Shown: positions 19,318 to 63,954 of the stretch, piece after piece
Numbering within the stretch: position 1 is the first letter of the stretch
Layout of the letters: each line of letters begins with the position of its first letter
Assembly: GCA_000999095.1 (NCBI GenBank)
Contig: LCFP01000001.1
Span: 74,230-138,229, forward strand
DNA from: Candidatus Gottesmanbacteria bacterium GW2011_GWA2_43_14
GTDB lineage: Bacteria; Patescibacteriota; Microgenomatia; 2-02-FULL-39-11
DNA: 64,000 nt
Direction: 5' to 3'
Position numbers and translations under genes: made by a program
The notes under the pieces: generated by a model
Seen by the model: the letters and a program-made list of their open reading frames with translations, nothing else
Told to the model about the DNA's origin: nothing
Databases searched by the model: none

Positions 19318-19320
19318 AGC

Positions 19321-35563: not shown

Positions 35564-36223
35564 CTATACAGCTCCCTTTCCGCTGATCATGGCCCAGGGA
35601 GTAACCATAAGAATTTTAATATCATACCATAAGGAGCGGTGGTCGACATAATCGGCATCCATAGCGATTCTTTTGTCAAAATTAACGGCACTTCTGCCTG
35701 AAACCTGCCAATAACCGGTTATGCCCGGTTTAATTGACAGAACTTTTGAGACTTTGGTCTTTGTAGCCGGATATTTGCGCTGCTGGTTAGCCAGTTCGTC
35801 CGGATAATAAGCGCGCGGTCCGACCAAAGTCATATCACCGACTATGACATTGATCAGTTGGGGAATTTCATCGAGGGAGTGTTTCCTGAGGAATTTCCCC
35901 AATCGGGTAACTCTGGGGTCCTCCTGCAGTTTATAGCTGTTTTTTTTATACTTTAGGTAAAGACTTCTTAAGTTGGGATCATTTCTTAACATCATATGGG
36001 CATTGACCACCATGGAGCGGAATTTATACATTTTAAACAGTTTGCCGTCCTGTCCGACCCTCTCCGGAGTATCGGCAAATATCGGCCCGGCAGAATCAAG
36101 CTTGATGATAACCGCCAGAACCAAACCAACCGGCAGGAAAATTATTCCCAAAATGACGGCCAGTACCATGTCAAGCCATCTTTTTAAATATAAATCGTAA
36201 GTCCTGCCTTTAAATAACGGCAT
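35564..36223 (-). CDS. Polyprenyl-phosphate phosphoglycosyl transferase (small bacterial sugar-transferase family, PglC/WbaP C-domain type). Initiating enzyme of the glycan pathway.
   Basis: 219 aa. One N-terminal re-entrant helix, then KRWLDMVLA...SAGPIF...KFRSM...DEIPQL...GDMTLVGPR, the canonical motifs of PF02397. Confidence 0.85.
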   Translation of the reverse strand: MPLFKGRTYDLYLKRWLDMVLAVILGIIFLPVGLVLAVIIKLDSAGPIFADTPERVGQDGKLFKMYKFRSMVVNAHMMLRNDPNLRSLYLKYKKNSYKLQEDPRVTRLGKFLRKHSLDEIPQLINVIVGDMTLVGPRAYYPDELANQQRKYPATKTKVSKVLSIKPGITGYWQVSGRSAVNFDKRIAMDADYVDHRSLWYDIKILMVTPWAMISGKGAV

Positions 36224-36241
36224 AAGTCAAATGATTGCCAA

Positions 36242-37345
36242 TTAAACCAAATGTTCGTTTTCTGAGTGCGAGAGGCTTTCCACCAGTTTTTTAATTTTGG
36301 GAACGGAATTTTTATGGCAGACCAAAACCACATCGCGGGTATTGATAACCAAGTGTCCTTCAAGGTCGATCGTGACCAGAAGTTGGTCGGTATAATTATA
36401 TATAAGGGAATCTGAACAATCGGTAACAACTACTTTGCCTTTAACCACATTTTTGTCAGCCCCAGTCTGCAGGGCTTCTTTGAGGGCTTCCCAGGCACCG
36501 ACATCGCTCCAACCCAAATCTTCACTGACCACTAGCCCTTCATCTGCTTCAATTTTTTCCAGAATGGCATTATCAAAAGAAAGCTTTGTCAGGCGGGGGT
36601 ATGATTTTTCCAATTGCGATGTGAATTGTCTGCTGCCGTAGCTTTCCTCGAGCAGGTCCATTTCCCTTGCCATCTCGGGTTGAAATTTCCGGAATTGAGT
36701 TTTCAGGTACGCCGGTGTGGTCACAAAATATCCGGTATTCCAGCCGTAGCTCCCGCTTTTAAAATAGACGGCAGCTTCAGTCAGGTCCGGACGGTATTTA
36801 AATCCCTGAAACTGCCGGAAAGATATTCCGTTGGCTGAGGTTTTCTCCTTGCCGTATTTTATCCAGCCTAAATTCTGGCTGGCAAACCTGGGCTTTTGAG
36901 TTATAAAAATAATTCTCTGCTTTTTATCTTCTATTTGTTTGCGGCTTTCATTGAGGATTTTTTTAAAAAGGTCCTGCTTTTTTATAATATGGTCGCTCCA
37001 AAGTATGACTATGGGAGTATGAGCATGACGGTGGTGCAATATGGCGGTAACCAGGGCGACTGCCGGACCGACATCCCTGGCTTCCGGCTCACCTAAAATA
37101 TTTTTATCGTTAAGCTGCGGCAACTGCTTTTTAACCTGTGGCACATATTTTTTATTGGTGGAGATATAAATATCATCCCAGGCGAAATCAGGAACCAAGC
37201 GCTCAATCGACAACTGCAGTGTCGATTTGTCGCCTATTACCTTTTCAAACTGTTTGGGAGAGCTTCTCCTTGATAGCGGCCAAAGCCTGGTACCGACCCC
37301 GCCGGCAAAAATTATTGCTTTCATACCGATTGTTCTTTCCTCCAT
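36242..37345 (-). CDS. manC: Mannose-1-phosphate guanylyltransferase (GDP-mannose pyrophosphorylase)
   Basis: 367 aa. MKAIIFAGGVGTRLWPLSRRSSPKQF matches the ManC/CpsB N-terminus. The start is probably at the internal M8. Confidence 0.75.
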   Translation of the reverse strand: MEERTIGMKAIIFAGGVGTRLWPLSRRSSPKQFEKVIGDKSTLQLSIERLVPDFAWDDIYISTNKKYVPQVKKQLPQLNDKNILGEPEARDVGPAVALVTAILHHRHAHTPIVILWSDHIIKKQDLFKKILNESRKQIEDKKQRIIFITQKPRFASQNLGWIKYGKEKTSANGISFRQFQGFKYRPDLTEAAVYFKSGSYGWNTGYFVTTPAYLKTQFRKFQPEMAREMDLLEESYGSRQFTSQLEKSYPRLTKLSFDNAILEKIEADEGLVVSEDLGWSDVGAWEALKEALQTGADKNVVKGKVVVTDCSDSLIYNYTDQLLVTIDLEGHLVINTRDVVLVCHKNSVPKIKKLVESLSHSENEHLV

Positions 37346-38478
37346 TTCCTTAAAATATATGCCTTCATCTTCCTCATAAATACTGCTTCGGAAAACCGTA
37401 TTGCATTTTCCCTTAGAAGCCGGGGATTAAATTCCATGGTTTCAAAAATCCTTAAGGCGTTTTCCAGTGATGCTTCTGTTTTTTCCCCGTAGAGTAAACC
37501 GGTTTGACCATGCCTGATGCTCTCGGCAGCTCCGCCCAAGGCAAGAGCGATGACCGGACTGCCGCAGGCTTGGGCTTCCACGGCTGTCAAACCGAAATCT
37601 TCTTCACCCGGAAAAATTAAACTTCGGCAATTTTGATAATACCAACACAATTTCCGGTCTGTCAAATTACCGGTTATAAATTTGACAGAATTGCCGGCCA
37701 GATTTTGCAACCTGCGGTTGTCCACTCCGCTGCCGATAACAACCAGTTTTTGTCCGGTCTTGCTGAACAGGCTAATGGCATAATCCAATCCTTTATAAGG
37801 GACGAGCCGGGAAACAATCAGGAAATAATCTCCCCTTGTTTTTTTGTCCGGAAGGCTGAATGAACCGGTATCAAGAGGCGGATAGACAACTTCCGCCTTC
37901 TCCCGGTAGAAACGGCTCAACCTCTTTTTAACCGTTTCGGATATGGCCAGATAGGTATCGGGTCTTTTGGCCGACAATAAGTCCCAACGCCGCAATGCCG
38001 GGGCAAAAAGCCTCATGCCTGCCCGGAATAAAGGGTTTAAAAGTCCGACACCGGGTTCGGCCAAATATTCATTATATCCGCTCCAAAGATACCTGGTTGG
38101 CGTCAAACAATAGCAAATATGCAACGTGCCGGGTTTGGTAATGATGCTTTTGGCATCGGAGGAAGTTACCGATAAGACAATATCAAAATCGCTGAAATCG
38201 AAATTTTCGAAAGCATATGGAGTCAGAAAAGGCAGCATTTCATGATAGCGGTCGGCCAGAGGAAGATGCTTTAAAAAAGAAGTCCTGACTTCAAAACTGT
38301 CCGCCCACGGTGCTTTGTTTCTGTCATAAATGGCAGTATATAGCGGAGCATCAGGATAAAGTTTATGCAGTGACAAAAGAACCCTTTCCGCACCGCCGAA
38401 TTTCACTACGCGGTCATAGACGAGGGCAATTTTCGGTTTTTCACCGTTTCTACTGTCTGTCATATCGGTAATAATCAT
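37321..38478 (-). CDS. GT4-family (GT-B) glycosyltransferase
   Basis: 385 aa. EX7E-type C-terminal motif (FPGEEDFGLTAVEAQACGSPVIA). Confidence 0.8.
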   Translation of the reverse strand: MIITDMTDSRNGEKPKIALVYDRVVKFGGAERVLLSLHKLYPDAPLYTAIYDRNKAPWADSFEVRTSFLKHLPLADRYHEMLPFLTPYAFENFDFSDFDIVLSVTSSDAKSIITKPGTLHICYCLTPTRYLWSGYNEYLAEPGVGLLNPLFRAGMRLFAPALRRWDLLSAKRPDTYLAISETVKKRLSRFYREKAEVVYPPLDTGSFSLPDKKTRGDYFLIVSRLVPYKGLDYAISLFSKTGQKLVVIGSGVDNRRLQNLAGNSVKFITGNLTDRKLCWYYQNCRSLIFPGEEDFGLTAVEAQACGSPVIALALGGAAESIRHGQTGLLYGEKTEASLENALRIFETMEFNPRLLRENAIRFSEAVFMRKMKAYILRKWRKEQSV

Positions 38479-39949
38479 AAGGCTTGCCCATATTGGTTAA
38501 CTGATATAGATCCGGCAAAAGTTCAGGCTCCTGACCGTAAAGGAAGGCTTTCACCAAACGGAAATTATTGACCGGGGAAAAATCTTCTTTTAGATTTTTG
38601 TAATCTTCACCGGGCAGATAGACGGCATTAAGAATTGACATTTTTAAAGCAATTTCCTTTTGTGAAGCCTCTGACCAGTCAAATTCCTGCTTATCGGCCT
38701 CATATGCTTCAGGATAGGGTCCTTCGTCAGCCTGAAAAATTATAATCGGAGGATTACTTTTATCCTCAAGGAACTTGTCGGTCAACTTGATGACTTCCCG
38801 GTTTAGATATTCAATCTGGTCAAGGTATTTGGTCTTGTAAGATCTGGCAGAGTCTTCTGCCAATGGCAGGAAACTGCCATCCTGCCGAAATACAAATGGT
38901 TCGTGCGGCACAAGCATATGGGCAAAGACAAATGTAGGCCGGGGTTCGACGGGGATTTCCTTCAGTTTATCAAATTTGTAGCGGATCCTCCTCCACTGGG
39001 TATAGCGGTAATCAAGAAGCGGCAGCCGGAATTTTTCAGCCAAAGGCTTTAGGGCGGAATTGTTGACCAGGATGGCTGAAAATTCGGAGAGCACATTCAA
39101 ATTGACATTCTCGTCGGCATGCCTGTTTTTACCGGTAGGCCACCACCAGTCTCCGAAATGATAGTATTTATAGCCTAATTTTTTCAGTTCAGCCTGGATT
39201 CTGTTGTTCTCCAGCATCCGGTATAAAGGCAACCAGTCCTGAGATTCCTTCATCCCGGCATCCAACGGATTATCCAAATAATCCATATTCAGGGTAGCTG
39301 TCAGGGAATGGGCTGAGGATGTATAATTTGCCCAACTTTTTGAGGCAATAAAGAAATTCTTCCCCTTTAAATAATCGGTAAAAGGGCTAAGGTCATAATC
39401 AAATTCCTTCTTGAGGCTATCGGCTGAAGCATAACGGTCAAAAATAATAAAATATATGTCCGGCAGTTTTTCGGCTGAAACTGCACGGGTGACAACCGTG
39501 GAAACGGATTCTCCGGAAAAATCCACTTTGATCCTCAGCTGATAATTAATGACCTGAACCAGCGGAATTGCTACCAGTACAAGGGAAAAAATATTTGTCC
39601 AGAAATGTAATTTATCGGTGTTTTTTACGTATTTCAATTTTCGGGCCGCAGTAAAAATCAGTCCTCCAAATAACAGATAAATCAAAAGCGGCTGTTTAAT
39701 AAACTTTTCCAGATGTCCGTAGGAGAAAAAAAGATAGAGGCTTATGGAAGTCAAAACAGCAGAAATCCTCAATTTGCGGGTGATCACCGTATAAATCAAA
39801 AAGAAGCACAGACACAGAATCACTGAAAATAAAAAAGGCAGGTAGGTTTCCTGGGGGAGGACCTGGTATAAATTTGCCTGATACAGACCAAGGACCGGAT
39901 AGACCGACATCAAAAAAGGGTGCAGCCAGGGGAAATTTAAGGGATTCAT
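38450..39949 (-). CDS. Membrane-anchored sulfatase / alkaline-phosphatase-superfamily enzyme (LtaS/phosphotransferase-like)
   Basis: 499 aa. Five N-terminal TM helices, then an extracytoplasmic domain with the metal-site-like DIYFIIFDRYASAD and the HxP motif LVPHEPFVF. Confidence 0.5.
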   Translation of the reverse strand: MNPLNFPWLHPFLMSVYPVLGLYQANLYQVLPQETYLPFLFSVILCLCFFLIYTVITRKLRISAVLTSISLYLFFSYGHLEKFIKQPLLIYLLFGGLIFTAARKLKYVKNTDKLHFWTNIFSLVLVAIPLVQVINYQLRIKVDFSGESVSTVVTRAVSAEKLPDIYFIIFDRYASADSLKKEFDYDLSPFTDYLKGKNFFIASKSWANYTSSAHSLTATLNMDYLDNPLDAGMKESQDWLPLYRMLENNRIQAELKKLGYKYYHFGDWWWPTGKNRHADENVNLNVLSEFSAILVNNSALKPLAEKFRLPLLDYRYTQWRRIRYKFDKLKEIPVEPRPTFVFAHMLVPHEPFVFRQDGSFLPLAEDSARSYKTKYLDQIEYLNREVIKLTDKFLEDKSNPPIIIFQADEGPYPEAYEADKQEFDWSEASQKEIALKMSILNAVYLPGEDYKNLKEDFSPVNNFRLVKAFLYGQEPELLPDLYQLTNMGKPYDYYRYDRQ

Positions 39950-41391
39950 CGGTGACCCTCCAGTAAATATAAAATGCGGTCTTTGGATTTTAACGGCTGC
40001 TTTTTTCGGAGACGGAAATAGCGGCCGAAATCCGCCTGAAAATTTGTCTCTGAATACGCAGAGACATCCGCATTTCTTATTTGGGAGAGCAGCCTGACCT
40101 GGGGATCAGACGGGCCTACGAATTCGACTATCAGCTGTTTTCCCAGGCTGCTCAAATATTCTGCAATTGCCGAAAAAGGCAGGTTATCGGAAAAAAACAG
40201 GTGGTGGATTAAGGCCAATGCCAACACGCTGTCGGATTTAAGCCGTACGTCAAAAGTTTCCCTCTCCAGGTTGCGCCAACCCAGACCCGGACTGGGATTG
40301 ATCAGATCAATTGACAATGGCAGCAGATTTCCGATTTTTTCAGTCTCTGCCTGCCGGTAATTAATCTCAACAGCCAGGCTGTCGAAGTCGCAGGAAACTA
40401 CATATCCTGCCTTCCCTGCCGCCAGCCTGGAGTAGAATCCCGTATTGGCTCCCAAGTCGACCAGCTTGACCGGTTTGATAAAATTCAGCCATCCAATCGT
40501 CAGGCGTTCTTTTTCACGGCTGTATTCAGACATATCAGGCAGCCGGTAGTAATCCGACCAAAGGCTTCTTGATTCGGGAAGCCGGAGCGAGTTGACGGCT
40601 TTTTCCAGACTGTCAAGAATCCCCTCCAAACCTCTGCCCGTGACTTTGGAAGCTTCTTTTTCAACTGCTCCCTCCTTTTGGTATTTAGTTGCACTCAGGG
40701 CATGAAGGTGTAAATTCAAAAACAGATGCAAATTTAACCTGGATTTTCCCGGCAGTAGTTTTACTCCCAAATCCATAGGAACACCGTCCAGATGGTTTTT
40801 CATCAGCTGCTGCAGCCTTAAATCCCGGTAGGCCATCAAAGACAGCGGCAGCAGGAAATGCTGGCAAAATTGCCGGTAGGCAACCCAGGGACGGTTAATT
40901 TCGTAGCGTTCAAAAGAGAGCGTGTCAATAAAAACAGGCATTAAGCCTTTAAACTGGACATTGTATGAACTGGCATCTTTTAAAGTCAGGCCGTGTTTAA
41001 GGGCGGCTTTTTCTATTTTCAAAGTCAGGAGCGCTGCTTTCTTATAGGCTGAGAAACTCCATTCATATGGATAGCTGATGACGGGAATTACCTCAGGTTC
41101 CAGAATTTTATAGAGTCCCTTATCCTGCCAGCCGGATTTTGCGGGTGATTCCTCTTTGTGTTCAATCAGCAGCTTGTCTGATACGAGCTCCTGATACAGG
41201 CCTGAGTTCATCAAAAGGTCATAATCAGCCCGGTAGCTGTCTTGAACCGTCCTGATGATTCTACCCTGATGATGGAAAACCTGTCCGCTTCTATCCCGGA
41301 AGGATGAGGGCAAAGCTCTGATTTTATTCATTTTTTCTTCTGTCTGAATGAAGCTACCAGGCGGTTGAGGCTGCTTTTGATATACTTCCAA
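39946..41391 (-). CDS. Two-domain protein: N-terminal domain of uncertain, possibly kinase-like, fold plus a C-terminal class I SAM-methyltransferase
   Basis: 481 aa. The C-terminus LVDLGANTGFYSRLAAGKAGYVVSCDFD is MTase motif I plus the post-I acidic residue. The N-terminal 300 aa contain LKDASSYNVQF...PVFIDTLSFE, reminiscent of a kinase catalytic loop plus DFG-like segment (weak). An alternative start at M21 (ATG at 41331) would give an ATGA overlap with the upstream small ORF. Confidence 0.5.
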   Translation of the reverse strand: MEVYQKQPQPPGSFIQTEEKMNKIRALPSSFRDRSGQVFHHQGRIIRTVQDSYRADYDLLMNSGLYQELVSDKLLIEHKEESPAKSGWQDKGLYKILEPEVIPVISYPYEWSFSAYKKAALLTLKIEKAALKHGLTLKDASSYNVQFKGLMPVFIDTLSFERYEINRPWVAYRQFCQHFLLPLSLMAYRDLRLQQLMKNHLDGVPMDLGVKLLPGKSRLNLHLFLNLHLHALSATKYQKEGAVEKEASKVTGRGLEGILDSLEKAVNSLRLPESRSLWSDYYRLPDMSEYSREKERLTIGWLNFIKPVKLVDLGANTGFYSRLAAGKAGYVVSCDFDSLAVEINYRQAETEKIGNLLPLSIDLINPSPGLGWRNLERETFDVRLKSDSVLALALIHHLFFSDNLPFSAIAEYLSSLGKQLIVEFVGPSDPQVRLLSQIRNADVSAYSETNFQADFGRYFRLRKKQPLKSKDRILYLLEGHR

Positions 41392-41531: not shown

Positions 41532-41544
41532 GGACTGTATTTTA

Positions 41545-42663
41545 TCATTTAAACCTCTGGTATTGCCAGTCTGTATCCCTGGCGGTTTTCTCCCAGGAAA
41601 ATCTCCGGCTCCTCTCTTTGGCGCCCGATAGCCGGGTATTTTTTTCTTTCCGGGAAAGTGTAAGAAAAAAAGCGATTGCCTTCCTTATGGATTTGCTTTC
41701 GTTCGGATCGAAATAAATTAAAGCATCTCCCCAGATTTCTCTAAAAGCCGGGATATCTGAAACAACCGGCAGGCAACCGGCAGCCACCGCTTCCAAAAGG
41801 GGCAGTCCGAAACCCTCCATTAGGGCCGGTGAAATAAACCCCTCCGCCTGACGGTACAGGGCAGCCAACTCTGCATCATCTGCCTTGCCAAAAAAAATGA
41901 CGCTTTTTCCGGCACCGGCATCCTTTGCCAACCGCTTTAAACGGGGATAGAAAAAATCATCATTTCCCACCAATATCAGCCGGACCTGGTGCTCTCTTTC
42001 TATTTGCGGAAACAAAAGTACGAGTTTCTCCAGATTTTTATGGGGGTAGGCATTTCCCACATATATAAGGTAAGGTTTGCCCCGGGGAAGGTATACGGAA
42101 GTATTTTCTGCATTATTAAGAGTTTTAAGGAAATTTTCGTCCAAAGCGTCATAAGTGACGCTAACTTTATCCCGGGCTTCAGCGTAATGCGCTTTGATTT
42201 CCCCGGCTGTTGCTTCAGAAATGGCAAAAACGTGCTCTGCTTTGGAAAGGGCTCTCCTCATCAGCATCCGGTAAGCGGATTTTTTCAGCATATATACAGG
42301 ATAAGGCCAGCGGCTGGCACGTCCGGTTGTTTCATGGTCAATAATAAGATCATGAACAGTCACCACAAACCTGCCCTGATAAAAAACAGGCAAACTGAAA
42401 TAGGGAAAATGAACCAGGTCCAGTTTGTATTTTCCCAGTATAAAAGGCAGCCAAAGCTGTTCTGTCAGGGAATGCCAGCGGACATCAAGTGCAATTTTTA
42501 TAAAGGATGAGGGTAGATTGGGCAGGTATTTTAACTCACGGCTCCCCGTAAAAACCAGAAATTCATCATGTTTATTTATCTTGGCCAGGTTTATCAGCAG
42601 GTTTTTGATATACCTGCCGACTCCGGTCTCATTAACCAGCCTGGCGTCAAAACCGATGCGCAT
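41545..42663 (-). CDS. GT4-family glycosyltransferase
   Basis: 372 aa. C-terminus EGFGLPLLEAVAAGCLPVVSD. Confidence 0.8.
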   Translation of the reverse strand: MRIGFDARLVNETGVGRYIKNLLINLAKINKHDEFLVFTGSRELKYLPNLPSSFIKIALDVRWHSLTEQLWLPFILGKYKLDLVHFPYFSLPVFYQGRFVVTVHDLIIDHETTGRASRWPYPVYMLKKSAYRMLMRRALSKAEHVFAISEATAGEIKAHYAEARDKVSVTYDALDENFLKTLNNAENTSVYLPRGKPYLIYVGNAYPHKNLEKLVLLFPQIEREHQVRLILVGNDDFFYPRLKRLAKDAGAGKSVIFFGKADDAELAALYRQAEGFISPALMEGFGLPLLEAVAAGCLPVVSDIPAFREIWGDALIYFDPNESKSIRKAIAFFLTLSRKEKNTRLSGAKERSRRFSWEKTARDTDWQYQRFK

Positions 42664-57419: not shown

Positions 57420-58129
57420 TAATCAAAAAAACGGTAATAAAATATGGCTTTGATGGCTTCAAAAGCGTCAATTACTGTCAGCTTTTTGCCGGCCAGACGG
57501 TCTCTTCCCCTGTAGCTGATCGGCACTTCAATTATTTTTACCTTTTTACGGATAATTTTTCCGGTTATTTCCGGCTCGAAATCAAAATGGGCAGCCTTCA
57601 GAGACAGATTTTTTACTATTTTGGCCGGCAATAGTTTATAACCTGTTTCCATATCGGTCAAATGCACTCCGTAAGTAATATTGGTAAAAAAAGTTAAAAT
57701 CTTATTGCCAAAAAGATAGGCTTTGGGAATTACCGCCCGTCCTGACATAAATCTTGATCCGTATACTGCAAAAACACCGTTATTCTTTTGTTTTACAAGA
57801 GGCGCCAGCAATTTGCCGATTTCCGATGGATTATACTCAAAGTCAGCATCCTGGACCAGAATATAATCCCCCGAAGCCTCTTTAATGCCTGTTTTAACTG
57901 CCTCTCCTTTACCCGAATTCTTCCGGTGAAAAACAATTTTTAATTTCTTTTTTTCTTTGTCCTTTCCCGGCCATTTTTTCAGGATACCGGCAGTGCCGTC
58001 CGTCGATCCGTCATCAACCACCACAATTTCCGTAGTCACCGGCAACTTAAGATGTAACAGTTTATGCAAAACGGGCGTGATTGTTTTCCTTTCGTTAAAA
58101 ACCGGGACTATGATTGACAGATTCATCAT
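57419..58129 (-). CDS. GT2 polyprenyl-phosphate glycosyltransferase (DPM1/GtrB/ArnC-like)
   Basis: 236 aa. LSIIVPVFNE...EIVVVDDGSTDGT, QDADFEY (DAD motif). The compact size is typical of Dpm1/GtrB-type synthases. Adjacent to GT-C genes. Confidence 0.65.
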   Translation of the reverse strand: MMNLSIIVPVFNERKTITPVLHKLLHLKLPVTTEIVVVDDGSTDGTAGILKKWPGKDKEKKKLKIVFHRKNSGKGEAVKTGIKEASGDYILVQDADFEYNPSEIGKLLAPLVKQKNNGVFAVYGSRFMSGRAVIPKAYLFGNKILTFFTNITYGVHLTDMETGYKLLPAKIVKNLSLKAAHFDFEPEITGKIIRKKVKIIEVPISYRGRDRLAGKKLTVIDAFEAIKAIFYYRFFD

Positions 58130-59172
58130 GCTTTATTTTCAAAAACTTGTTCATATTGGCTGCTGACGTTATCCCAGGAAAATTTTTCCGCCTGCTTTCT
58201 CTGCAGGCTGCCCGGGCCGGCCGATAATGCTTTTTTTATCGCTTTGGCATACGATACCGCATCCTCCACTTTGCAGTAAAAACCGGCCTTTCCTAAAATG
58301 AAGCGGCGGTTTTCATCATCAGGTGCGACAACCGGCAAATTGGCCGCCAGCGCCTCAAGATAGACCAGGCCGAAAGCCTCACTGGATTCAGAAGGCAGGG
58401 AAAAAACGTCGGCTGCCCGGTAATAACCTTGTATCAGCTCATGTCTGATATGCGGAAAATGGTAAAACCGGCCGGGCAGAAGCCTCTCTCCCGAATCAGT
58501 GATTTCCTTTTTCATCGGACCGTCACCGACAACCAGCAGATTAACCCCGGAAAGCCGGGATACAGCCCTGATAAGAAGACCAATCCTCTTATAGGGCAGA
58601 AGCGCTCCTATAGTAATGACCAAAGGGTGATTGAATTGAGTTCTCAGCTTGTGACTGGCGGTAGTTTTACGGAAATTGACACCGTTAGGAATCAATCGGA
58701 CAACCGGAGAAGAAGTCAAATTTTTTGCCCAGGAAAATGCGGCCGGTGTCAGCGCCACAAAAACATCAGGCCGGCCGAACTTCAAGTTGAAATGGTCTTC
58801 GCGCCCCACTCCTGCATGGCCGCTGACCAGCACTCTGCATTTTTTCAGCCCCCTTAACATGCGGCAAATTAAAACCTGGAAACGGCCGTTGACCGGTATC
58901 AGCCAGTCATAGTTTTCCGAAAGTAAAAAAGGCAGGGCTTTTAAAGTGAAATATAGGACAACAAGGTGATAGAAAAAGTCAGATGGCCCGCTGTTGGTGA
59001 TGAAAGGTACACCGTTTATGACTTTTTCCCGGTAGGAAGCTTTGTTTTCGGGACCGCTTTGGACTACCGTTACTTCATGCCTCCTTGACAAACGATGAGC
59101 CAGATTAACCACAAATATTTCCGATCCACGTTCGATGCGGCCGTTATAGATATTTAAAAAAAACAGTTTCAT
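58126..59172 (-). CDS. GT4-family glycosyltransferase
   Basis: 348 aa. C-terminus ESSEAFGLVYLEALAANLPVVAP. Confidence 0.75.
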   Translation of the reverse strand: MKLFFLNIYNGRIERGSEIFVVNLAHRLSRRHEVTVVQSGPENKASYREKVINGVPFITNSGPSDFFYHLVVLYFTLKALPFLLSENYDWLIPVNGRFQVLICRMLRGLKKCRVLVSGHAGVGREDHFNLKFGRPDVFVALTPAAFSWAKNLTSSPVVRLIPNGVNFRKTTASHKLRTQFNHPLVITIGALLPYKRIGLLIRAVSRLSGVNLLVVGDGPMKKEITDSGERLLPGRFYHFPHIRHELIQGYYRAADVFSLPSESSEAFGLVYLEALAANLPVVAPDDENRRFILGKAGFYCKVEDAVSYAKAIKKALSAGPGSLQRKQAEKFSWDNVSSQYEQVFENKA

Positions 59173-59987
59173 TATGCCAGTTTCCTTTTAATTTTCTTCA
59201 GGGGTGTTAAAAACGCTGCCATAAACTCATAAACCATGCCTCTTTCACCTAAAACTTCCGCAACCATTGCCGGTTTTTCTTTTTTATAAAAAATCTCAGG
59301 AATAAATTGACGTTTAAGTTCCAATCCTTTCTCGATTTTGTACTTATTTCGGTTGAAAACAGGATCGTCCTTCATGGATGACCTTTTTAAATACATGGCA
59401 TGGAAAAGATGGCCTTTGGTGAAAATGAATTTTTCCGGGGGATGACGGGTTATCTCAGTATCCGTTTTGTCATAATATCCTTCGAGAGGATATTTGCCGG
59501 CAATATGAAGACCGGACAAAATGTCCGTATTAATCAGTCTGAGAGCGAAATGCCCCTTTTTGCCGAACAAACTGTAAAAACCCGCTGAATCGTCCTGGTA
59601 ATGGTAAATATCACCCAACAAATCATAACGGCCGACGACAATACCCTCCGTTGTCCGGCCTTTCATTTTAACAATCTTGCGGATTTCCGAGGCGGTTTCC
59701 CCGGGATAAACTTCATCGCCGTCAACCAGCCAGATAAAACCGCCGCCGGTTTTTTCCAGCTGTGACTGCCGGAGCCTACTGACGTCTTGGGCTGTTTCAG
59801 CTTTTTCCCGCTTCAGGCTGATTTTCGGATCGCTGAATGATTTAAGAATCCGGTAAGTCTCGTCCGATGAGCCGCTGTCACAAATAAGCACCCGGTCGGC
59901 ATATGGCAGAACCGAAGCCAGACTGTACCAAACGAAGCGGTCTTCGTTTTTAACCAGCATATGAACCGTAATTTTCTTATCAGCCAT
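59172..59987 (-). CDS. GT-A fold glycosyltransferase-like protein (family-2-like)
   Basis: 271 aa. N-terminus HMLVKNEDRFVWYSLASVLPYADRVLICDSGSSDET resembles the GT2 nucleotide-binding region. Contains a DGDE (DxD-like) motif. Confidence 0.45.
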   Translation of the reverse strand: MADKKITVHMLVKNEDRFVWYSLASVLPYADRVLICDSGSSDETYRILKSFSDPKISLKREKAETAQDVSRLRQSQLEKTGGGFIWLVDGDEVYPGETASEIRKIVKMKGRTTEGIVVGRYDLLGDIYHYQDDSAGFYSLFGKKGHFALRLINTDILSGLHIAGKYPLEGYYDKTDTEITRHPPEKFIFTKGHLFHAMYLKRSSMKDDPVFNRNKYKIEKGLELKRQFIPEIFYKKEKPAMVAEVLGERGMVYEFMAAFLTPLKKIKRKLA

Positions 59988-61272
59988 TTTTTCGGCGGAG
60001 AGTAATATAAGCCATCATGGAAGTCAAAACCAATGTCAAGCCGTAGGAAAGTATTAAAGAATAAGCGGCACCGAAACTCCCGAATTTCGGAATGAAATAA
60101 AGATTGCCGAAAAAGACAACTATCAGCTGTAAAACGGCATTGACCGTCAGAATCTGCGGTTTTTTAAGATAATAGATTGATAATGATACAGCCGGCACGG
60201 AAGCGACAAAAAAGAGCATGGCCACTAAAAGCAGTCTGAAAACCGGTACCGCCGGAGCGGCTTTTTGCCCGAAAAGAACAGTCAGGAAAGGCTGGGCAAT
60301 CAGTATCATGCCTACCGTCGACAAAGTCAATAAAAAGGTTGCCAAAATAATTTTAAGCAAAAAAGAATTGAACTCCGGCTTTGTTTTTATCTTGGAGAGT
60401 TTGGGCGCCAATACTGCCGAGAAACTGCCCGACAGAAGCGGATAAATGGAGATGACTCTGGCAGCTATGGAATAAATGCCGGCTTCAGTGGCATTTTTAA
60501 TGGATATAATCATCAGGACATCAAGCCTTGACGACAAGGCAGTCAATCCTCTGGCAATACCTAAAAAAACCGTGAAAGAAAGCAGCTTCTTCAGGTCGCC
60601 GGGCGTGACTTTGACTTTAAGAAAATTGAATTTCACCATGGCAAAGGCAAAAGTGACCAAGAGCAATTGGGATATGAGCTGAATCTGAACAGTCTTTATG
60701 AGGGTCAACGAAAAAGCGGACAGCAATATTAAAAGTAATATCAGCCTGATAATTCCGCCTACGGCGGAAAGTACGGCATTTTGGACGAATCTTTGGCGGG
60801 CAACCAGGGTAAAAAGGGCGAAATTGGACATAATGGTAAAAGAAATGGCCAGCCCAATCAGTCTTACATGCATGGCAAAATCTAGGTTATGAAAGAGTAT
60901 TTGAGAAATGGCCGGCGCCAGGAACATCATAAAAACTAAAACTGCAAGGCTGATGGCAAATTGCAACAGGAAGGAAGTTTTTAAAAAGCTGAGGAGTCTG
61001 TTTGGTTTCTCTTCCATCGGCGGCAGAAATGACGAAAGCGATGAACCTATGCCTATATCGGACAGGTCCGACACCAGAATCATCAGGGATATGAATGCTG
61101 AAAAGTAGCCGAAATCAGCCACCGACAAATTGCGGACCAAAATGACGGTAAAGATGAAAGCGAAAAATGCCGACAGGAAATTGCCTGTAAAAACAGCGTA
61201 AGTATTGCGGGCAGTTGCCGAAAACATAAGCGTCAGAAAAGCTTTCCTATATCGATTTTTAAAGTTATCCAT
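59980..61272 (-). CDS. wzx: Wzx-like oligosaccharide/polysaccharide flippase (MOP superfamily)
   Basis: 430 aa with about 12 TM helices. Wzx/PST-family hydrophobicity pattern and conserved positively charged residues in the N-terminal helices. Confidence 0.65.
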   Translation of the reverse strand: MDNFKNRYRKAFLTLMFSATARNTYAVFTGNFLSAFFAFIFTVILVRNLSVADFGYFSAFISLMILVSDLSDIGIGSSLSSFLPPMEEKPNRLLSFLKTSFLLQFAISLAVLVFMMFLAPAISQILFHNLDFAMHVRLIGLAISFTIMSNFALFTLVARQRFVQNAVLSAVGGIIRLILLLILLSAFSLTLIKTVQIQLISQLLLVTFAFAMVKFNFLKVKVTPGDLKKLLSFTVFLGIARGLTALSSRLDVLMIISIKNATEAGIYSIAARVISIYPLLSGSFSAVLAPKLSKIKTKPEFNSFLLKIILATFLLTLSTVGMILIAQPFLTVLFGQKAAPAVPVFRLLLVAMLFFVASVPAVSLSIYYLKKPQILTVNAVLQLIVVFFGNLYFIPKFGSFGAAYSLILSYGLTLVLTSMMAYITLRRKNG

Positions 61273-62377
61273 ATTTTCTGATAATACGGCAAACAGTGTC
61301 TATTTGCCGGAAAGTCATAGTCGTAAAAGTCGGTAAATTAATTCCATGTCCGGACAGGTACTCGGAAATTTCAAAACTGCCTATCATAAAATAAGGAGGC
61401 TGCCGGTTTATGGGAATGAAAAAAGGACGGCTGTCTATTCCGTTTTTACTTAGCAGTTCAATTAAACGGTCCCGGCTGAGTTTATAAGGCCGGTCAACCG
61501 TCATCGAAAAAAGCCAGCAGACATTTTTTTTATCAGGATGGTTTTTGACAAAATTAATGCCTTCTATCCCCTCCAATTGCTGTTGGTAACGCCGGGAAAT
61601 TGCGTCCCTTATTTCCAAAAATTTATTAATTCTTTCGAGTTGTGCCAGACCGATTGCAGCCTGCATGTTGGTCATTCGGTAATTAAAACCGATTTTCGGA
61701 TGAAAATAGTGCCGGTCCGGTTTTTGTCCGTGATCACGCAGGATTTCCATTTTTTTGAAAAGCTTTGAATCATCGGTTGTAACCATTCCCCCTTCTCCGG
61801 TTGTTATGATTTTATTCCCGTAAAATGAGAAAATACCGGCTATCCCCATCGAACCGACTTTTTTAGGTCCATTAATCCTGTACTCTGCTCCGTGGGCTTC
61901 GGCTGCATCCTCCAATACCCATAAATTTCTTTCTCTGGCAATTTCCAAAATTTCCCCCATTCCGGCCGGATTGCCATATAAATGAACGGCGATTATACCG
62001 CAGGTTCTGTGGGTAATTTTCTTCCGGATTTCCTCCGGATTTATATTCCAACTGCTTCTGTCAACATCAGCCAATACCGCCTTAGCGCCGACAAAACTGA
62101 CGGCGTTGGCGGTGGCGATAAAAGTAAAATCGGGTACAATGACTTCATCCCCGGCTGAAACATCCAAAGCTGCTAAAACCAAATGCAGGGCGGTAGTTCC
62201 GTTTGAAGTTGCCAGGGCATAGCGGGTCCCGGTAAATGCGGCAAATTGCTTTTCAAACAATTCCAGATACTTCCCGGTACTGGAAATCCAGGTAGAATTA
62301 AGGCAATCATTTAAATATCTTTTTTCATTGCCTGAAAGATCGGGAATGACCAGCGGCAATTTAATTTTAGTTTTCAC
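61265..62377 (-). CDS. DegT/DnrJ/EryC1/StrS-family PLP-dependent sugar aminotransferase
   Basis: 370 aa. PLP-Lys context FSFYGNKIITTGEGG. N-terminus LPLVIPDLSGNEKRYLNDCLNS. Confidence 0.8.
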   Translation of the reverse strand: MKTKIKLPLVIPDLSGNEKRYLNDCLNSTWISSTGKYLELFEKQFAAFTGTRYALATSNGTTALHLVLAALDVSAGDEVIVPDFTFIATANAVSFVGAKAVLADVDRSSWNINPEEIRKKITHRTCGIIAVHLYGNPAGMGEILEIARERNLWVLEDAAEAHGAEYRINGPKKVGSMGIAGIFSFYGNKIITTGEGGMVTTDDSKLFKKMEILRDHGQKPDRHYFHPKIGFNYRMTNMQAAIGLAQLERINKFLEIRDAISRRYQQQLEGIEGINFVKNHPDKKNVCWLFSMTVDRPYKLSRDRLIELLSKNGIDSRPFFIPINRQPPYFMIGSFEISEYLSGHGINLPTFTTMTFRQIDTVCRIIRKYG

Positions 62378-63954
62378 TTTTTGGGGGACAGGATAAAGAC
62401 GTGGACATTTTCATAAATTTCATCTGACAGGATGTTAAATTCCGTCAAAAACTGCAGCTTGGATTCCTGCCATTTAACCAACAGCTCATTCGGCAGCCTG
62501 GGATCAATCATAGACAGCAGGACTATCTTTCCGGGATTACCCTGCTTCCGGTCATAATAGAGCCAGTCATAGTAGCTGTCCATGTATGAATGAACCGGTT
62601 TGCCTACATAATGCTCATAGAGATAACGCCAGCCGCCGAATCGCGGGCACTCTCCCAATGCTTCCAGTGAATATTCTTCCTGTTCTACGGCTTTTTGGGA
62701 ATAATCAAGTACAGCCATTTTTCCGGTATATGAGTAGCTGGAAAAAGCAGTGCCCAAAGTAATTACATTACCCAGAAGGAACATGAAACAGACGGTTGCC
62801 CCCAGATAAACCAGATCTTCATTTCGCCACAAACTTTCTACGGCTACACCTAAAATTATGGCCAGGTAAGGCAAAAGCCAAAGAAGATAATACTCGAAAA
62901 ATGCCCCGGGATAGAAAATGACGGCTGCCAGTCCCAAGAGCAATACTGAACCGATTATGCCCAATCCCAGATTATCCGGCAGAAGTCTTTTGTGGCTGAA
63001 AAATGATTTCATTTTGTGGAAGGCAACTTTGATAAATAAACCGATTCCCGCCAGAGCAAGCAGGATAATTTCGGGATAGGCGTCTTTGCGGAATGCTGTC
63101 AACTCCCGGCATTGCCCGTTTTCCAGGAATAAATCGGGACGCGGCGGAATCCAGAAAAACCTGCCCAAGGTATTAAATAAAAGCCTTATCCTGTCGCTAA
63201 AAGAGGCAAACAATCCTCCGCCTCTTATCTGTGACAGCAGTGAAAAAAAAGCCTTCAAATTGGGAAAATCATGGCGTAGTTCGAAAAGCAGTAGCGGCAG
63301 CTGCAGTAGCAAAAAAACAGCCACAGCCCAAATAATAATTTTCCGGCCGAAATGACGTTTATATTTTACCGTCAAAAAGAGTATTAAAGGAGCCAGCATC
63401 CAGACGGACAGATGGCTGTGCAAACCCAAACCGAAAAAGAAAGCCGCAGCCAGCAGGTATTTTTTATTGTCGGTCATTGACCGGTAGAGGAAATAACCGA
63501 TTAATAGAGAAAACAGGGGCATCAGCATCGGATTCCAGTACTGCCTGTCGTAATAAGATGTCAAAAAAGAAACGGCATAGAAAAAGGCAGCCAAAAGCGC
63601 TGCCCGCCTGTTAACCATTTTTTTAGCAACAAGAAAAACAACCAGGGTGGTCATCACTCCCAGGGATGAGGCAAAAATGGCAAAGCCTGCGGGATTTCCT
63701 CCGAAAAGAAGGTAAGGCAAAGCGGAAAAATAAATGAATAATGGCCCAAGGTACAGGCCGGTATCGGCAGCGTTTACCCCGATGAGCGGAAAATGGGCGC
63801 CTTCGACAATATTTTTGGCCAGGAAAGCTTCATATTCCTGGTCCATACCGAAGGCAAACCAGTCTGTCAGATGGTAAAACCTGAACAGGAAAGCCAGGAC
63901 CAAAACGCCCAGAAGCAATATCCTGATCCTACTTATTTTTTTGAGCTTGCTCAT
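62374..63954 (-). CDS. GT-C fold membrane glycosyltransferase (ArnT/PMT-like). Paralogue of the protein at 54578-56152.
   Basis: 526 aa, polytopic. First loop FGMDQEYEAFLAKN (DE motif). Shares FFYAVSFL and a C-terminal soluble domain with the 54578-56152 protein. Confidence 0.6.
   Translation of the reverse strand: MSKLKKISRIRILLLGVLVLAFLFRFYHLTDWFAFGMDQEYEAFLAKNIVEGAHFPLIGVNAADTGLYLGPLFIYFSALPYLLFGGNPAGFAIFASSLGVMTTLVVFLVAKKMVNRRAALLAAFFYAVSFLTSYYDRQYWNPMLMPLFSLLIGYFLYRSMTDNKKYLLAAAFFFGLGLHSHLSVWMLAPLILFLTVKYKRHFGRKIIIWAVAVFLLLQLPLLLFELRHDFPNLKAFFSLLSQIRGGGLFASFSDRIRLLFNTLGRFFWIPPRPDLFLENGQCRELTAFRKDAYPEIILLALAGIGLFIKVAFHKMKSFFSHKRLLPDNLGLGIIGSVLLLGLAAVIFYPGAFFEYYLLWLLPYLAIILGVAVESLWRNEDLVYLGATVCFMFLLGNVITLGTAFSSYSYTGKMAVLDYSQKAVEQEEYSLEALGECPRFGGWRYLYEHYVGKPVHSYMDSYYDWLYYDRKQGNPGKIVLLSMIDPRLPNELLVKWQESKLQFLTEFNILSDEIYENVHVFILSPKK

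Follow-up and report, generated by a model that had tools for sequence, protein, structure and literature searches.

A gap-free array of 25 genes in Candidatus Gottesmanbacteria, covering 28.4 kb (35564-63954 of the window, the whole 64,000-nucleotide stretch of DNA analysed), is a genuine gene cluster for a cell-surface sugar polymer, conserved within a single group of ultra-small bacteria from groundwater. With a probability of roughly 60 %, we consider its product to be a complex cell-surface heteroglycan, methylated, acetylated and containing amino sugars, made by combined polyprenyl-diphosphate- and polyprenyl-phosphate-linked routes. Both routes are present in the one array, as the initial annotation had proposed: a phosphoglycosyl transferase (PGT), GT4 and GT2 transferases, Wzx and a WaaL/Wzy_C-type module represent one, a DPMS-like GT2 and four GT-C_A enzymes the other. 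The most distinctive feature of the locus, missed by that annotation, is the fusion of a WaaL-like to a GT-C_A module; the predicted enzyme, joining an O-antigen-ligase-like domain to a lipid-sugar-dependent glycosyltransferase, is undescribed.

Extent and setting of the locus

The ORF map shows overlaps of 1-29 bp between most neighbouring genes of the array; coordinates refer to the minus strand unless the plus strand is stated. All categories of component listed in the initial annotation were recovered at their positions using the ORF map, Pfam and NCBIfam, with some changes in number and architecture given below. The array reaches beyond the ends first assigned to it. Its last gene, encoding a DUF4012 protein (33650-35563), abuts with its start the stop of the PGT gene, and past the end of the window the source contig carries at least 10 kb more with GT2, GT10 and GT11 genes, methyltransferases and a DUF2142 membrane protein. 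Identical gene order in independent assemblies (291-kb ENA scaffold, 217-kb Logan contig), an even GC content across the locus (0.41-0.47) and synteny kept in other Microgenomates genomes rule out a chimeric assembly.

The DUF4012 protein (637 aa, one N-terminal transmembrane segment and a large extracytoplasmic part; Pfam DUF4012 77.7 bits) has a counterpart beside the PGT in 27 of the 40 related loci. DUF4012 has been reported from CPS/EPS clusters and shows enrichment in CPR (PMC6744442), and the protein found here probably has an auxiliary envelope or polysaccharide function. The window also contains a complete dcw/peptidoglycan cluster including FemAB, which fits a Gram-positive-like wall (PMC6744442); the host Gottesmanbacterium is Gram-positive-like (monoderm).

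Conservation across Microgenomates

A relative of the fusion protein is encoded on 189 matched stretches of the species-genome collection, and the core of the locus, together with its neighbouring genes, is a conserved Microgenomates feature, not one unusual for a small-genome bacterium as had been suggested. Neighbouring genes were counted over 40 related loci, or over 80 for relatives of a 199-aa ORF described below. The conserved core (35.5-54.5 kb) lies beside the dcw cluster, and the distal part, including the GT-C gene at 54578, varies between loci in the manner of serotype-type glycan loci. In GCA_016186795.1, too, the core runs on directly into the distal genes (PMT_2, DegT, Wzx, GT2, GT4 and a 240-aa GT2).

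A two-module membrane protein

The ORF at 44752-47847 had been taken for one of four plain GT-C proteins; its GT-C_A module holds, its plain architecture does not. It encodes a 1031-aa protein of two domains, Wzy_C and PMT_2 (PMT_2 34.4 bits, cut-off 26.1). The N-half (aa 1-525; 46273-47847) is a WaaL/Wzy_C-like GT-C_B module and the C-half (aa 526-1031; 44752-46272) an ArnT/ALG/PMT-like GT-C_A module with an invariant first outer loop, WHSWRQADT. The two halves form one fused protein in 37 loci and are adjacent co-directional genes in 37 loci, with 15 of the split pairs overlapping by 4 bp, and the N-half family is independently fused to another GT-C_A subfamily in 22 representatives. Because the modules are fused in Gottesmanbacteria and encoded by overlapping neighbour genes in sister lineages, they very probably share one substrate and carry out successive or coupled steps on it. 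The essential His of the WaaL type is Asp in the N-half family, so the N-half may not share the chemistry of WaaL.

Free-standing GT-C_A enzymes and a candidate lipid-linked sugar supply

Each of the four polytopic proteins scores above the Pfam PMT_2 cut-off (26.1 bits), and structure-model fold search or profile comparison agrees with their assignment as GT-C enzymes, not transporters. The protein encoded at 62374-63954 (526 aa, PMT_2 53.2 bits) carries an invariant D38 in loop 1 and ends in an alpha/beta domain. Its AF2 model (pLDDT 94.7, pTM 0.94) matched ArnT (5f15, E 3e-8, TMq 0.58) in Foldseek, other matches being AglB, STT3, ALG9/12, Pmt4, EmbC, AftD and PimE; at E <= 1e-3 solely GT-C_A structures were retrieved, and transporters appeared only at probability <= 0.3. 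A full-length paralogue (hhalign E 5e-52 over 503 columns) is encoded on the plus strand at 54578-56152 (524 aa, PMT_2 31.0 bits). It occupies a variable slot, with a relative in just 3 of 40 loci and DUF2079 and DUF6798 in its place in related locus L003. The co-directional ORF following it (56149-56748, plus strand; 199 aa, soluble) has no Pfam or NCBIfam match and no relative in 80 loci. The third enzyme (52320-53678, 452 aa, PMT_2 27.0 bits) is a conserved core member found in 36 of 40 loci, and the profile of its family (48 sequences) matches the 62374 family at 99.2 % (E 2e-19, 428 columns). The DE-type first loop ascribed to all four GT-C proteins is strictly present only in 52320 (invariant W-L-D-E) and 54578 (IDEE), with D-Q-E in 62374 and WRQADT in the C-half of 44752. 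GT-C_A families GT39/53/57/83 use lipid-phosphate-monosaccharide donors, and GT-C_B families, including O-antigen ligases, use lipid-diphosphate-oligosaccharide donors (PMC10920833 Table 1); since some GT-C_A enzymes (GT66) take diphosphate-linked donors, the fold by itself does not reveal the donor type.

We identified one GT2 lacking transmembrane segments (57419-58129) that resembles DPMS and AglJ. Its best PDB match is the archaeal DPMS of P. furiosus (5mlz, E 7e-17) across aa 2-224, the whole catalytic domain, followed by ArnC and GtrB; it scores 112 bits against NCBIfam AglJ, under every curated NCBIfam cut-off, and its database entry bears the name 'dolichyl-phosphate mannose synthase-like protein'. 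In L006, a syntenic locus, a PMT_2 domain is fused to a GT2 that shares 30 % identity with 57419 over aa 3-220. These matches make 57419 a candidate polyprenyl-phosphate hexose synthase, with the caveat that generic GT2 enzymes can look like DPMS. Another GT2 (53675-54520; Glycos_transf_2 105 bits), which has a hydrophobic C-terminal segment and a 4-bp overlap with GT-C 52320, resembles DPMS or 57419 in its N-terminal half only and might possibly be a second lipid-phosphate-sugar synthase. Together with GT-C 52320 and a SAM methyltransferase (51596-52402; Methyltransf_11 32.4 bits) it forms a conserved triad, also present in L003, L005 and L006.

The sole flippase candidate of the locus is a Wzx/MOP-family protein (59980-61272; Polysacc_synt 76 bits, about 12 transmembrane segments) matched by MOP flippase and TuaB models. 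Neither a GtrA-type flippase nor a GacJ-like activator occurs in the window or 10 kb beyond; the single Wzx would account for only one of the two flipping steps. Neither a Wzz/PCP chain-length regulator nor an LCP ligase domain was found; in the Pfam searches, the LytR_C protein at 29728 had no LCP match.

Cytoplasmic glycosyltransferases and modification genes

The putative initiating enzyme is a small monotopic PGT of PglC size (35564-36223; Bac_transf 203 bits, 219 aa, one transmembrane segment) that matches the C-terminal catalytic domain of the NCBIfam WbaP/WcaJ models, has a relative in 34 of 40 loci and would act on polyprenyl phosphate to give a polyprenyl-diphosphate-sugar. Next to it, a ManC-like mannose-1-phosphate guanylyltransferase for GDP-mannose supply (36242-37345; NTP_transferase and ManC beta-helix; relatives in 29 of 40 loci) reaches 229 bits against TIGR01479, under the cut-off because the PMI domain is missing. 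The initial annotation had counted at least seven GT4 and four GT2 transferases; we find six and five, the latter including the Dpm1-like 57419. The GT4 enzymes lie at 37321-38478 (Glycos_transf_1 86 bits), 41545-42663 (103 bits), 43558-44742 (Glyco_trans_1_4 91.6 bits; TIGR03087-like, 201 bits), 49327-50457 (Glycos_transf_1 132 bits), 50454-51599 (77 bits) and 58126-59172 (82.5 bits), and the remaining GT2 enzymes at 42647-43552 (Glycos_transf_2 90.8 bits), 47819-48727 (86.4 bits) and, as a weak match, 59172-59987 (36 bits). Ten cytoplasmic glycosyltransferases are many for one repeat unit, so that more than one glycan may be made.

Among the modification genes, a WcaF-like hexapeptide-repeat acetyltransferase (48737-49330; Hexapep 54.8 bits, WcaF family 99.9 bits) is conserved more strongly than any other neighbour of the two-module protein, with relatives in 39 of 40 loci at a median identity of 61 %. 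A DegT/LegC/PseC-like sugar aminotransferase (61265-62377; DegT_DnrJ_EryC1 392 bits) scores 350 bits against the LegC family, below its cut-off of 420. Two of the three methyltransferases originally listed are matched by Methyltransf_11, that of the triad and one at 56757-57419 (36.2 bits); the third, a 481-aa soluble protein (39946-41391) with no Pfam match, is so called only from a SAM-methyltransferase-like motif read by eye (VDLGANTG) and a 15.8-bit NCBIfam match. It shares a variable cassette with a membrane-anchored sulfatase/LtaS-like protein (38450-39949; 3-4 N-terminal transmembrane segments), each being found in merely 4 of 40 loci. The LtaS-like assignment stands, at a borderline Pfam Sulfatase score (25.4 bits, cut-off 25), and by analogy with GacH the protein is a candidate extracytoplasmic phospho-substituent transferase.

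Proposed pathway and alternative explanations

Gene content, folds, conservation, the fusion and its neighbourhood are direct observations, on which we place a pathway with every step drawn from family membership. The small PGT would load a sugar-1-phosphate onto polyprenyl phosphate, six GT4 and three or four GT2 enzymes would extend it in the cytoplasm with GDP-mannose (ManC) and an amino sugar (DegT) as supplies, and Wzx would flip the polyprenyl-diphosphate-oligosaccharide to the outer face, where the WaaL/Wzy_C-like N-terminal module would receive the diphosphate-linked glycan and polymerise it or transfer it to an acceptor. In parallel, 57419 would form a polyprenyl-phosphate-hexose, plausibly mannose, which once flipped would serve as donor for the fused GT-C_A module and the three free-standing ones, adding branch or primer sugars on the outer side. 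In this strain, a phospho-substituent would perhaps be added by the sulfatase/LtaS-like protein. The combined design, thought at first not to be described as such, is not new, being known from the Gram-positives Bacillus, Streptococcus and Lactococcus: wall polysaccharides built via Wzx/Wzy or ABC systems are decorated outside the membrane in multi-component transmembrane glycosylation by a GT-A lipid-phosphate-sugar synthase, a GtrA- or Wzx-type flippase and at least one GT-C (PMC8035078, PMC9574508). Precedents are GtsABC of B. anthracis, GacI/J/K/L with LtaS-like GacH of S. pyogenes, and WpsA-J with CsdAB/CD/EF of L. lactis (PMC8035078, PMC9574508).

The same genes could serve general O-glycosylation of S-layer, pilin or other surface proteins, which we regard as unlikely. 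The N-half would then be a PglL/PilO/WsaB-type O-oligosaccharyltransferase moving the flipped polyprenyl-diphosphate-glycan to Ser/Thr/Tyr, and the PMT_2-type GT-Cs protein O-mannosyltransferases or enzymes extending the protein-bound glycan from polyprenyl-phosphate-mannose. CPR cells imaged by cryo-EM (Luef et al. 2015) reportedly carry S-layers and pili, neither an LPS nor an LCP ligase offers another acceptor route, and ManC and a DPMS-like GT2 are at hand; yet no S-layer or pilin substrate gene lies in or beside the locus (window and L003-L007). Wzy_C domains are common to WaaL ligases and PglL O-OTases and hard to separate by sequence (PMC3643930), but the PglL-type His is also replaced by Asp. 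Likewise, all four GT-Cs match PMT_2, Pmt4 and Pmt1-2 structures are among the matches and 52320 and 54578 have the loop-1 D-E pair, whereas Pfam finds no MIR domain and ArnT and ALG12 outscore the PMTs. The dcw-adjacent position and the DUF4012 link point instead to a wall or capsule polymer.

Less probable still is a mosaic island in which the core and the distal part (54.5-64 kb and beyond) are separate side-by-side pathways, the free-standing GT-Cs modifying unrelated targets (lipids, peptidoglycan or other polymers) in place of the PGT/Wzx product. Although GT-C 54578, the 199-aa ORF and methyltransferase 56757 occur in only 0-3 of 40 loci while lying inside the fetched flank, and the rarity of the sulfatase cassette, the L003 replacement, the opposite strand of 54578 and 56149 and the excess of ten cytoplasmic transferases over a usual repeat unit point the same way, neither part is complete alone: Wzx and the DPMS-like GT2 are distal, the PGT and WaaL-like module in the core. 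The contiguity in GCA_016186795.1 also speaks for one unit, and variable centres are normal within single O-antigen and CPS pathways. We consider a membrane-anchored lipoglycan (lipomannan/LAM-like, or an LTA substitute) very improbable. GT4 mannosyltransferases would start it on a glycolipid, GT-Cs would extend it outside from polyprenyl-phosphate-mannose and the WaaL-like module would ligate the Wzx-delivered glycan to a lipid anchor, as O-antigen is joined to lipid A-core. WaaL's own acceptor is indeed a glycolipid, and the low-scoring matches of the GT4s include models of LTA-anchor and diacylglycerol glycosyltransferases; the locus however lacks an acyltransferase, and the window yielded no PimA/PimB-type or phosphatidylinositol genes. 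ManC, a DPMS-like GT2 and several GT-C_A enzymes make up the actinobacterial LM/LAM toolkit, and PimE, AftA/B/D and EmbC are among the structural matches, but the PimE and Emb matches are far weaker than those to ArnT/ALG12, and the PGT, Wzx, aminotransferase and methyltransferases are foreign to LM/LAM synthesis.

Layout and integrity of the glycan locus

In the ORF map and Pfam annotation the glycan locus begins at 33.6 kb and continues unbroken up to the window edge, beyond a dcw/peptidoglycan cluster at approximately 6-29.6 kb (FtsZ, FtsA, MurG, FtsW, MraY, Mur ligases, PBP, RsmH and MraZ) which is followed in order by genes for a LytR_C protein, GlyRS and RecO. Neighbouring genes mostly overlap by 1-29 bp, with a single overlap of 83 bp, and the only gaps of more than 20 bp in the array are a 57-bp divergent junction at 54.5 kb and one of 153 bp at 41.4 kb. 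A scan of the divergent junction for promoters and terminators showed no excess over shuffled controls. We considered whether the contig might be chimeric, as the initial annotation had cautioned. An exact copy of the 1,031-aa protein encoded at 44752-47847 is carried by a 291-kb ENA scaffold (ANAN16-1 scaffold_52) and, in a separate run, by a 217-kb Logan contig, with the same surrounding gene order in each, and ORF 62374-63954 was likewise recovered with matching gene order. These independent assemblies, together with a uniform GC content across the locus (0.41-0.47) and synteny in other loci, rule out an assembly chimera. The deposited records KKS98595.1 and KKS98606.1 are named Candidatus Gottesmanbacteria.

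All part categories listed in the initial annotation were recovered where it had placed them using Pfam and NCBIfam, including the PGT (Bac_transf, 203 bits), Wzx (Polysacc_synt, 76 bits), DegT (392 bits), ManC and a WcaF-like hexapeptide acetyltransferase (100 bits), although some of its counts and assignments required revision. Six GT4 genes were counted in place of at least seven, the array contains five GT2 genes, and two of the three methyltransferases are clear while the third is doubtful. The LtaS-like sulfatase (38450-39949) is indeed a membrane protein, with 3-4 TM segments, but its Pfam Sulfatase score is borderline (25.4 bits against a cut-off of 25) and it has no NCBIfam match. The source contig continues for at least 10 kb past the window (L007:1-10026) and still carries glycan genes, so the end of the locus as first annotated is the window edge and not a true boundary. 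Glycosyltransferase genes of GT2, GT10-like and GT11-like (fucosyltransferase-type) kinds lie in this extension together with three methyltransferase genes, and it also encodes two membrane proteins, one with a DUF2142 domain and PDEQAH as its first loop and the other an unannotated polytopic protein of 494 aa.

A two-module protein predicted to join the two donor routes

ORF 44752-47847 had been annotated as a plain GT-C enzyme. The GT-C_A half is present (aa 526-1031), but the protein comprises two modules, of which the N-terminal one (aa 1-525) had been missed. Foldseek supports the division, placing the N-half in GT-C_B (WaaL/SEDS-type) and the C-half in GT-C_A, and the N-half matches Pfam Wzy_C above cut-off (61 bits) and superposes on WaaL. 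A Lys-rich linker (aa 514-545) is followed by a helix and then by the invariant loop W571-H572-S573-x-R575-Q576-x-D578-T579, from which we infer that both catalytic loops should face outward. Since GT-C_B families use lipid-PP-oligosaccharide donors and the GT-C_A families GT39/53/57/83 use lipid-P-monosaccharide donors (PMC10920833, a CAZy-based survey), a single polypeptide would join the two routes which the initial annotation had deduced from the genes present.

Residues R215, R288 and H338 of E. coli WaaL are essential and are also conserved in PglL (PMC3643930). The WaaL motif H338-N-x9-G-xx-G corresponds in the window protein to D424-N-x9-G435-xx-G438, in which D424, N425, G435 and G438 are invariant among 77 sequences. 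Of 78 locus proteins, 72 have Asp at the position of the WaaL His and four others do so within somewhat altered motifs, and Asp is likewise found there in 131 of the best 150 representatives of the family. This assignment is based on the common x-N-x9-G-xx-G motif and not on a full WaaL alignment. R239, which is invariant, pairs with R215 of E. coli WaaL in a weak local hhalign match of only 15 columns, and the invariant R384 is, on our reading of the motif, a plausible equivalent of R288. The module thus resembles the WaaL/PglL O-OTase/Wzy_C group (CAZy GT121; GT-C_B) in its Wzy_C match, the Arg at the R215 position and the loop motif, but it carries Asp in place of the essential His (H338 in E. 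coli WaaL, H349 in PglL) and therefore does not have the complete set of essential WaaL residues. For this reason we refer to it as WaaL-like in fold and not as a demonstrated O-antigen ligase. It further differs from WaaL in its pairing with a GT-C_A enzyme, either as a partner or by fusion, and in its setting, as the window contains no LPS genes, including those of a lipid A-core pathway, and its envelope genes are Gram-positive-like.

Full-length orthologues with 50-76 % identity make up all of the best 120 clusters, and so number at least 120, under the names Gottesmanbacteria, Microgenomates and 'Patescibacteria group', and in a collection of species genomes a relative is encoded in 189 matched stretches, the best 80 of which include loci named for Gottesman-, Curtiss-, Woese-, Beckwith-, Chisholm- and Roizmanbacteria. 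Searching the ORFs of these best 80 loci with separate N-half and C-half profiles, we identified the one-ORF state in 37 loci (36 fetched and the window itself) and two adjacent co-directional ORFs in a further 37. In 15 of the split pairs the ORFs overlap by 4 bp and hence lie in different frames. Loci named Gottesmanbacteria were fused in 14 of 14 cases, whereas those named for the five other groups were split in 17 of 17. Full-length relatives (41-62 % identity) were also found in L015, L017, L020, L023 and many more related loci titled 'uncultured Gammaproteobacteria/Pseudomonadales bacterium', titles which are probably placeholders or wrong taxonomy.

The N-half family is small, with 253 representatives at E ≤ 1e-30 in an exhaustive search of 1.84 billion proteins. 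Among its best 150 representatives 61 exceed 950 aa, comprising two of the Gottesmanbacteria type, 22 in which the C-terminal half is GT-C_A-like but of another kind (hhalign 96.6 %, E 6e-10) and 37, of 1100-1270 aa, whose unrelated tail combines 4-5 TM segments with a large soluble region, one of the 37 having a Metallophos match. Because fusion has recurred and the unfused genes lie close together, the WaaL-like module and a GT-C_A partner are predicted to work together. There is precedent for such coupled action in WadA of Brucella and Mesorhizobium, a two-module O-antigen ligase (GT121 and GT25) whose O-ligase-type module is joined to a glycosyltransferase working on the same glycoconjugate (PMC10920833). 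The partner in WadA is however a soluble GT-A-type GT25 enzyme using a nucleotide sugar, while here it is a polytopic GT-C_A enzyme expected to use a lipid-P-sugar at the outer face.

Four GT-C_A enzymes and a candidate lipid-phosphate-sugar synthase

The presence of four GT-C enzymes was confirmed by Pfam scores, by structure modelling with fold searches and by profile comparison. Against the PMT_2 (PF13231) cut-off of 26.1 bits, ORF 62374-63954 scored 53.2, the two-module protein 34.4, the ORF starting at 54578 31.0 and that starting at 52320 a borderline 27.0. Neither the proteins nor their family profiles yielded a usable match in sequence searches of PDB chains, and structure modelling with fold comparison was therefore used, two of the four polytopic proteins being modelled from homologue alignments. 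The model of 62374 (pLDDT 94.7, pTM 0.94) matched ArnT in Foldseek (E 3e-8, TMq 0.58) and also resembled AglB, STT3, ALG9/ALG12, Pmt4, DPY19, EmbC, AftD and PimE. The remaining two were classed by profile homology only, 54578 as a paralogue of 62374 over its full length (hhalign E 5e-52, 503 columns) and 52320 through a profile of 48 sequences from related loci (99.2 %, E 2e-19, 428 columns against the 62374 family). We rejected the possibility that these proteins are transporters, as transporter matches appeared only at Foldseek probabilities ≤ 0.3.

A first extracytoplasmic loop of DE type had been ascribed to all four enzymes. This is true of 52320, whose family keeps W23-L24-D25-E26 in at least 90 % of 48 sequences, and of 54578 (D34-E35-E36), but not of the others, in which the first-loop acidic residue is D38, invariant in the 62374 family, and D578, invariant in the fusion family. 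All four proteins lack WWDxG, or even WW, which excludes STT3/PglB-type oligosaccharyltransferases (GT66); the fold likeness to AglB and STT3 is limited to the common GT-C_A core. Like ArnT (GT83), PMT (GT39) and ALG9-ALG12 (GT22), the enzymes keep an acidic residue in their first outer loop and belong to Pfam PMT_2, but they differ from these in an identity of just 10-15 %, without a sequence-level match to solved structures, and in their first-loop motifs (WRQADT, GMDQEYE). From the family rule (PMC10920833, Table 1) we infer that they would use a polyprenyl-phosphate-linked sugar donor at the outer face of the membrane.

The four GT-C_A enzymes are encoded in the same array as a GT-A enzyme, the DPMS-like GT2 of 236 aa at 57419-58129, which has no TM segments. 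Its best solved relative is the Pyrococcus dolichol-phosphate-mannose synthase (5mlz, E 7e-17, over the whole catalytic domain), followed by ArnC and GtrB, while its NCBIfam matches are all under cut-off, the best being AglJ (112 against 325). In a syntenic locus (L006:4202-6205, GCA_900206355.1) a 667-aa protein combines a PMT_2-type GT-C with a DPMS-like GT2 that shares 30 % identity with 57419 (aa 3-220), and is a second fusion tying a 57419-type GT2 to GT-C enzymes. We regard 57419 as a candidate lipid-P-sugar synthase, an assignment well supported by similarity. In the remaining GT2 genes DPMS likeness is confined to the generic N-terminal half, and GT2 53675 was rejected as a clear second DPMS on this ground. 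The locus contains one flippase candidate, Wzx; neither an ORF of GtrA size with membrane character nor room for one is present in the window, and none is present in the next 10 kb.

Conserved core and variable distal part

By tblastn of all window proteins against related loci we found, over 40 loci of at least 20 kb, that a core is kept while other elements vary. The core includes the PGT (34/40), GT4a (36/40), the genes GT4b, GT2a, GT4c, GT2b, GT4d and GT4e (40/40 each, with paralogue cross-matches possible), the two-module protein or gene pair, the acetyltransferase (39/40, median identity 61 %) and GT-C 52320 (36/40). ManC (29/40), GT2c (28/40), DUF4012 (27/40) and a methyltransferase (24/40) also belong to it. 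Variable elements are the cassette of the sulfatase and a 481-aa ORF (39946-41391; 4/40), GT-C 54578 (3/40), the methyltransferase at 56757 (2/40) and a 199-aa ORF (56149-56748; 0/40). As flanks of ±10 kb were used, the counts are uninformative beyond approximately 9.6 kb from the fusion, that is for Wzx, DegT, 62374 and in part 57419. GCA_016186795.1 encodes DUF6798 and DUF2079 polytopic proteins (L003:1-3185) where the window has GT-C 54578, so that this position seems to act as a 'membrane glycosyltransferase slot' of variable content. In the same genome the genes for PMT_2, DegT, Wzx, GT2, GT4 and a GT2 of 240 aa form a distal block which once more adjoins the core.

The soluble 199-aa ORF lies on the forward strand in the same direction as GT-C 54578 with a 4-bp overlap, and has no Pfam or NCBIfam match and no relative among the 80 related loci.

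Proposed pathway and relation to known systems

In our preferred reading, to which we assign a probability of roughly 0.6, the locus encodes a surface glycan pathway of Gram-positive type whose product is elaborated outside the cytoplasm. A polyprenyl-PP-oligosaccharide would be assembled by the PGT together with the cytoplasmic GTs and flipped by Wzx, and the Wzy_C-like N-half, that is the WaaL-like module and the only polymerase candidate in the window, would polymerise or transfer the flipped glycan. The DPMS-like GT2 would provide polyprenyl-P-hexose to the fused GT-C_A module and to the three free-standing GT-C_A enzymes, which would attach branch or primer sugars outside the membrane. 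The pathway has gaps, since no GtrA-type or second flippase, no GacJ-like activator and neither Wzz/PCP nor LCP domains were found in the examined sequence.

The cytoplasmic GTs outnumber the usual need of one repeat unit, which is a further gap in this pathway. A mosaic of independent pathways, in which the parts of the array would serve separate products, is improbable. Protein O-glycosylation is a somewhat better but still unlikely candidate. The loop-1 D-E motif of protein O-mannosyltransferases (GT39) occurs in 52320 and 54578 only, the 62374 model resembles Pmt4 among others, PMT structures rank under ArnT and ALG12 in the fold searches, and none of the GT-C proteins has a Pfam match to the MIR domain, which eukaryotic PMTs carry in loop 5. 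A lipoglycan product, already suggested for the locus, seems the least likely of the three. We consider it possible, though doubtful, that the WaaL-like module with its Asp and the GT-C_A enzyme paired with it, a pairing that has arisen independently with another GT-C_A subfamily elsewhere, form an unrecognised two-donor 'junction' machine. Of its two active sites, one would accept a polyprenyl-PP-linked glycan and the other a polyprenyl-P-linked sugar, and the two would be primed, branched or joined on the final acceptor outside the membrane. In Microgenomates such a machine would correspond to the teichoic-acid/LCP-type attachment of wall polymers, with a chemistry (Asp for His) unlike that of known O-antigen ligases.

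The combination of routes had been put forward as an undescribed pathway, but it is established in Gram-positive bacteria, and its logic is ordinary there. For their wall polymers these bacteria employ a lipid-P-sugar synthase of GT-A type, in some cases TM-less like GacI, with a GtrA- or Wzx-type flippase and GT-C transferases decorating Wzx/Wzy-built or ABC-built polymers; WpsI, WpsJ and CsdB/D/F of L. lactis are GT-C enzymes acting in succession, and the LtaS-like GacH attaches glycerol phosphate (PMC8035078; PMC9574508). In three- or four-component transmembrane glycosylation systems such as B. anthracis GtsABC, whose SCWP substrate is Wzx/Wzy-built, or GacI/GacJ/GacK(Wzx)/GacL of S. pyogenes, which operates with GacH, a polyprenyl-P-sugar made by a cytoplasmic GT-A is flipped and a polytopic GT-C then transfers the sugar to a polymer assembled on a carrier lipid (PMC8035078; PMC9574508). 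The window locus is similar in that 57419, like GacI, has no TM segments, its sole flippase is Wzx-type as is GacK, and it includes a putative LtaS-family membrane protein as a counterpart to GacH. It differs in having no GacJ-like activator, GtrA, rhamnan or ABC-transporter genes, in encoding four to six GT-C enzymes per locus, one covalently fused to a WaaL-like module, and in belonging to an uncultured CPR bacterium.

The 'dual-chain' cwps locus of L. lactis (WpsA/B, WpsC-F, the Wzx WpsG, the polymerase WpsI, the transferase WpsJ and CsdAB/CD/EF; PMC9574508) is comparable in having several GT-C enzymes that carry out polymerisation, transfer to a second chain and glucosylation of side chains one after another outside the membrane, and in combining Wzx and many cytoplasmic GTs with a conserved and a variable part in one locus. 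The L. lactis oligosaccharide is however built on C55-P (monophosphate) with a GacI/J-type initiator, whereas in the window a module of WaaL/Wzy_C type and a classical PGT, which serves the diphosphate route, are present in addition, and membrane modules of the window type are fused or translationally coupled neighbours. DUF4012, a core-associated domain here, is CPR-enriched and associated with CPS clusters (PMC6744442).

Our searches of the literature on Gottesmanbacteria glycosyltransferases, CPR O-antigen ligases and Wzy_C with PMT_2 found no account of this locus or of the fusion, an absence that is no proof. So far as this literature shows, what is new is the GT-C_B::GT-C_A fusion or gene pair, its consistent Asp-for-His variant, and its conservation through a CPR class beside the dcw cluster. 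To our knowledge Microgenomates and other CPR bacteria are uncultured and their envelopes are known from images and gene lists only. Given its place beside the genes for division and cell-wall synthesis and a core kept throughout the group, the locus probably makes the main secondary surface glycan of Microgenomates cells, which would bear on host attachment, phage recognition and survival. Although the finding opens no long-standing question, the two-module protein is a clear marker gene for Microgenomates envelope biology and the fusion a tractable single polypeptide for the structure and mechanism of diphosphate- and monophosphate-linked donor use outside the membrane.

Additional features of the window

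The LytR_C protein (29728-31329, 533 aa) has its LytR_C domain at the C-terminus and no match to the LCP catalytic domain, and an LCP-type wall-polymer ligase was not seen anywhere in the window. Extra genes lie within the dcw cluster (12565-20637), namely GlmS, GlmU, a DAGK-like kinase (12565-12933), a FemAB-family protein (12964-13980), a second DegT-like aminotransferase (13967-15220) and an alpha/beta hydrolase (16780-17508), and they hint that the peptidoglycan precursor or the stem peptide is modified. Between IleRS and FtsZ, an Acyl_transf_3 membrane acyltransferase (3600-4643, forward strand) adjoins a 382-aa ORF (4645-5793, reverse strand) without a Pfam match. GC content over 4001-6000, which takes in this ORF, dips sharply to 0.314 against approximately 0.45 elsewhere, and the region may be a recently acquired insert.
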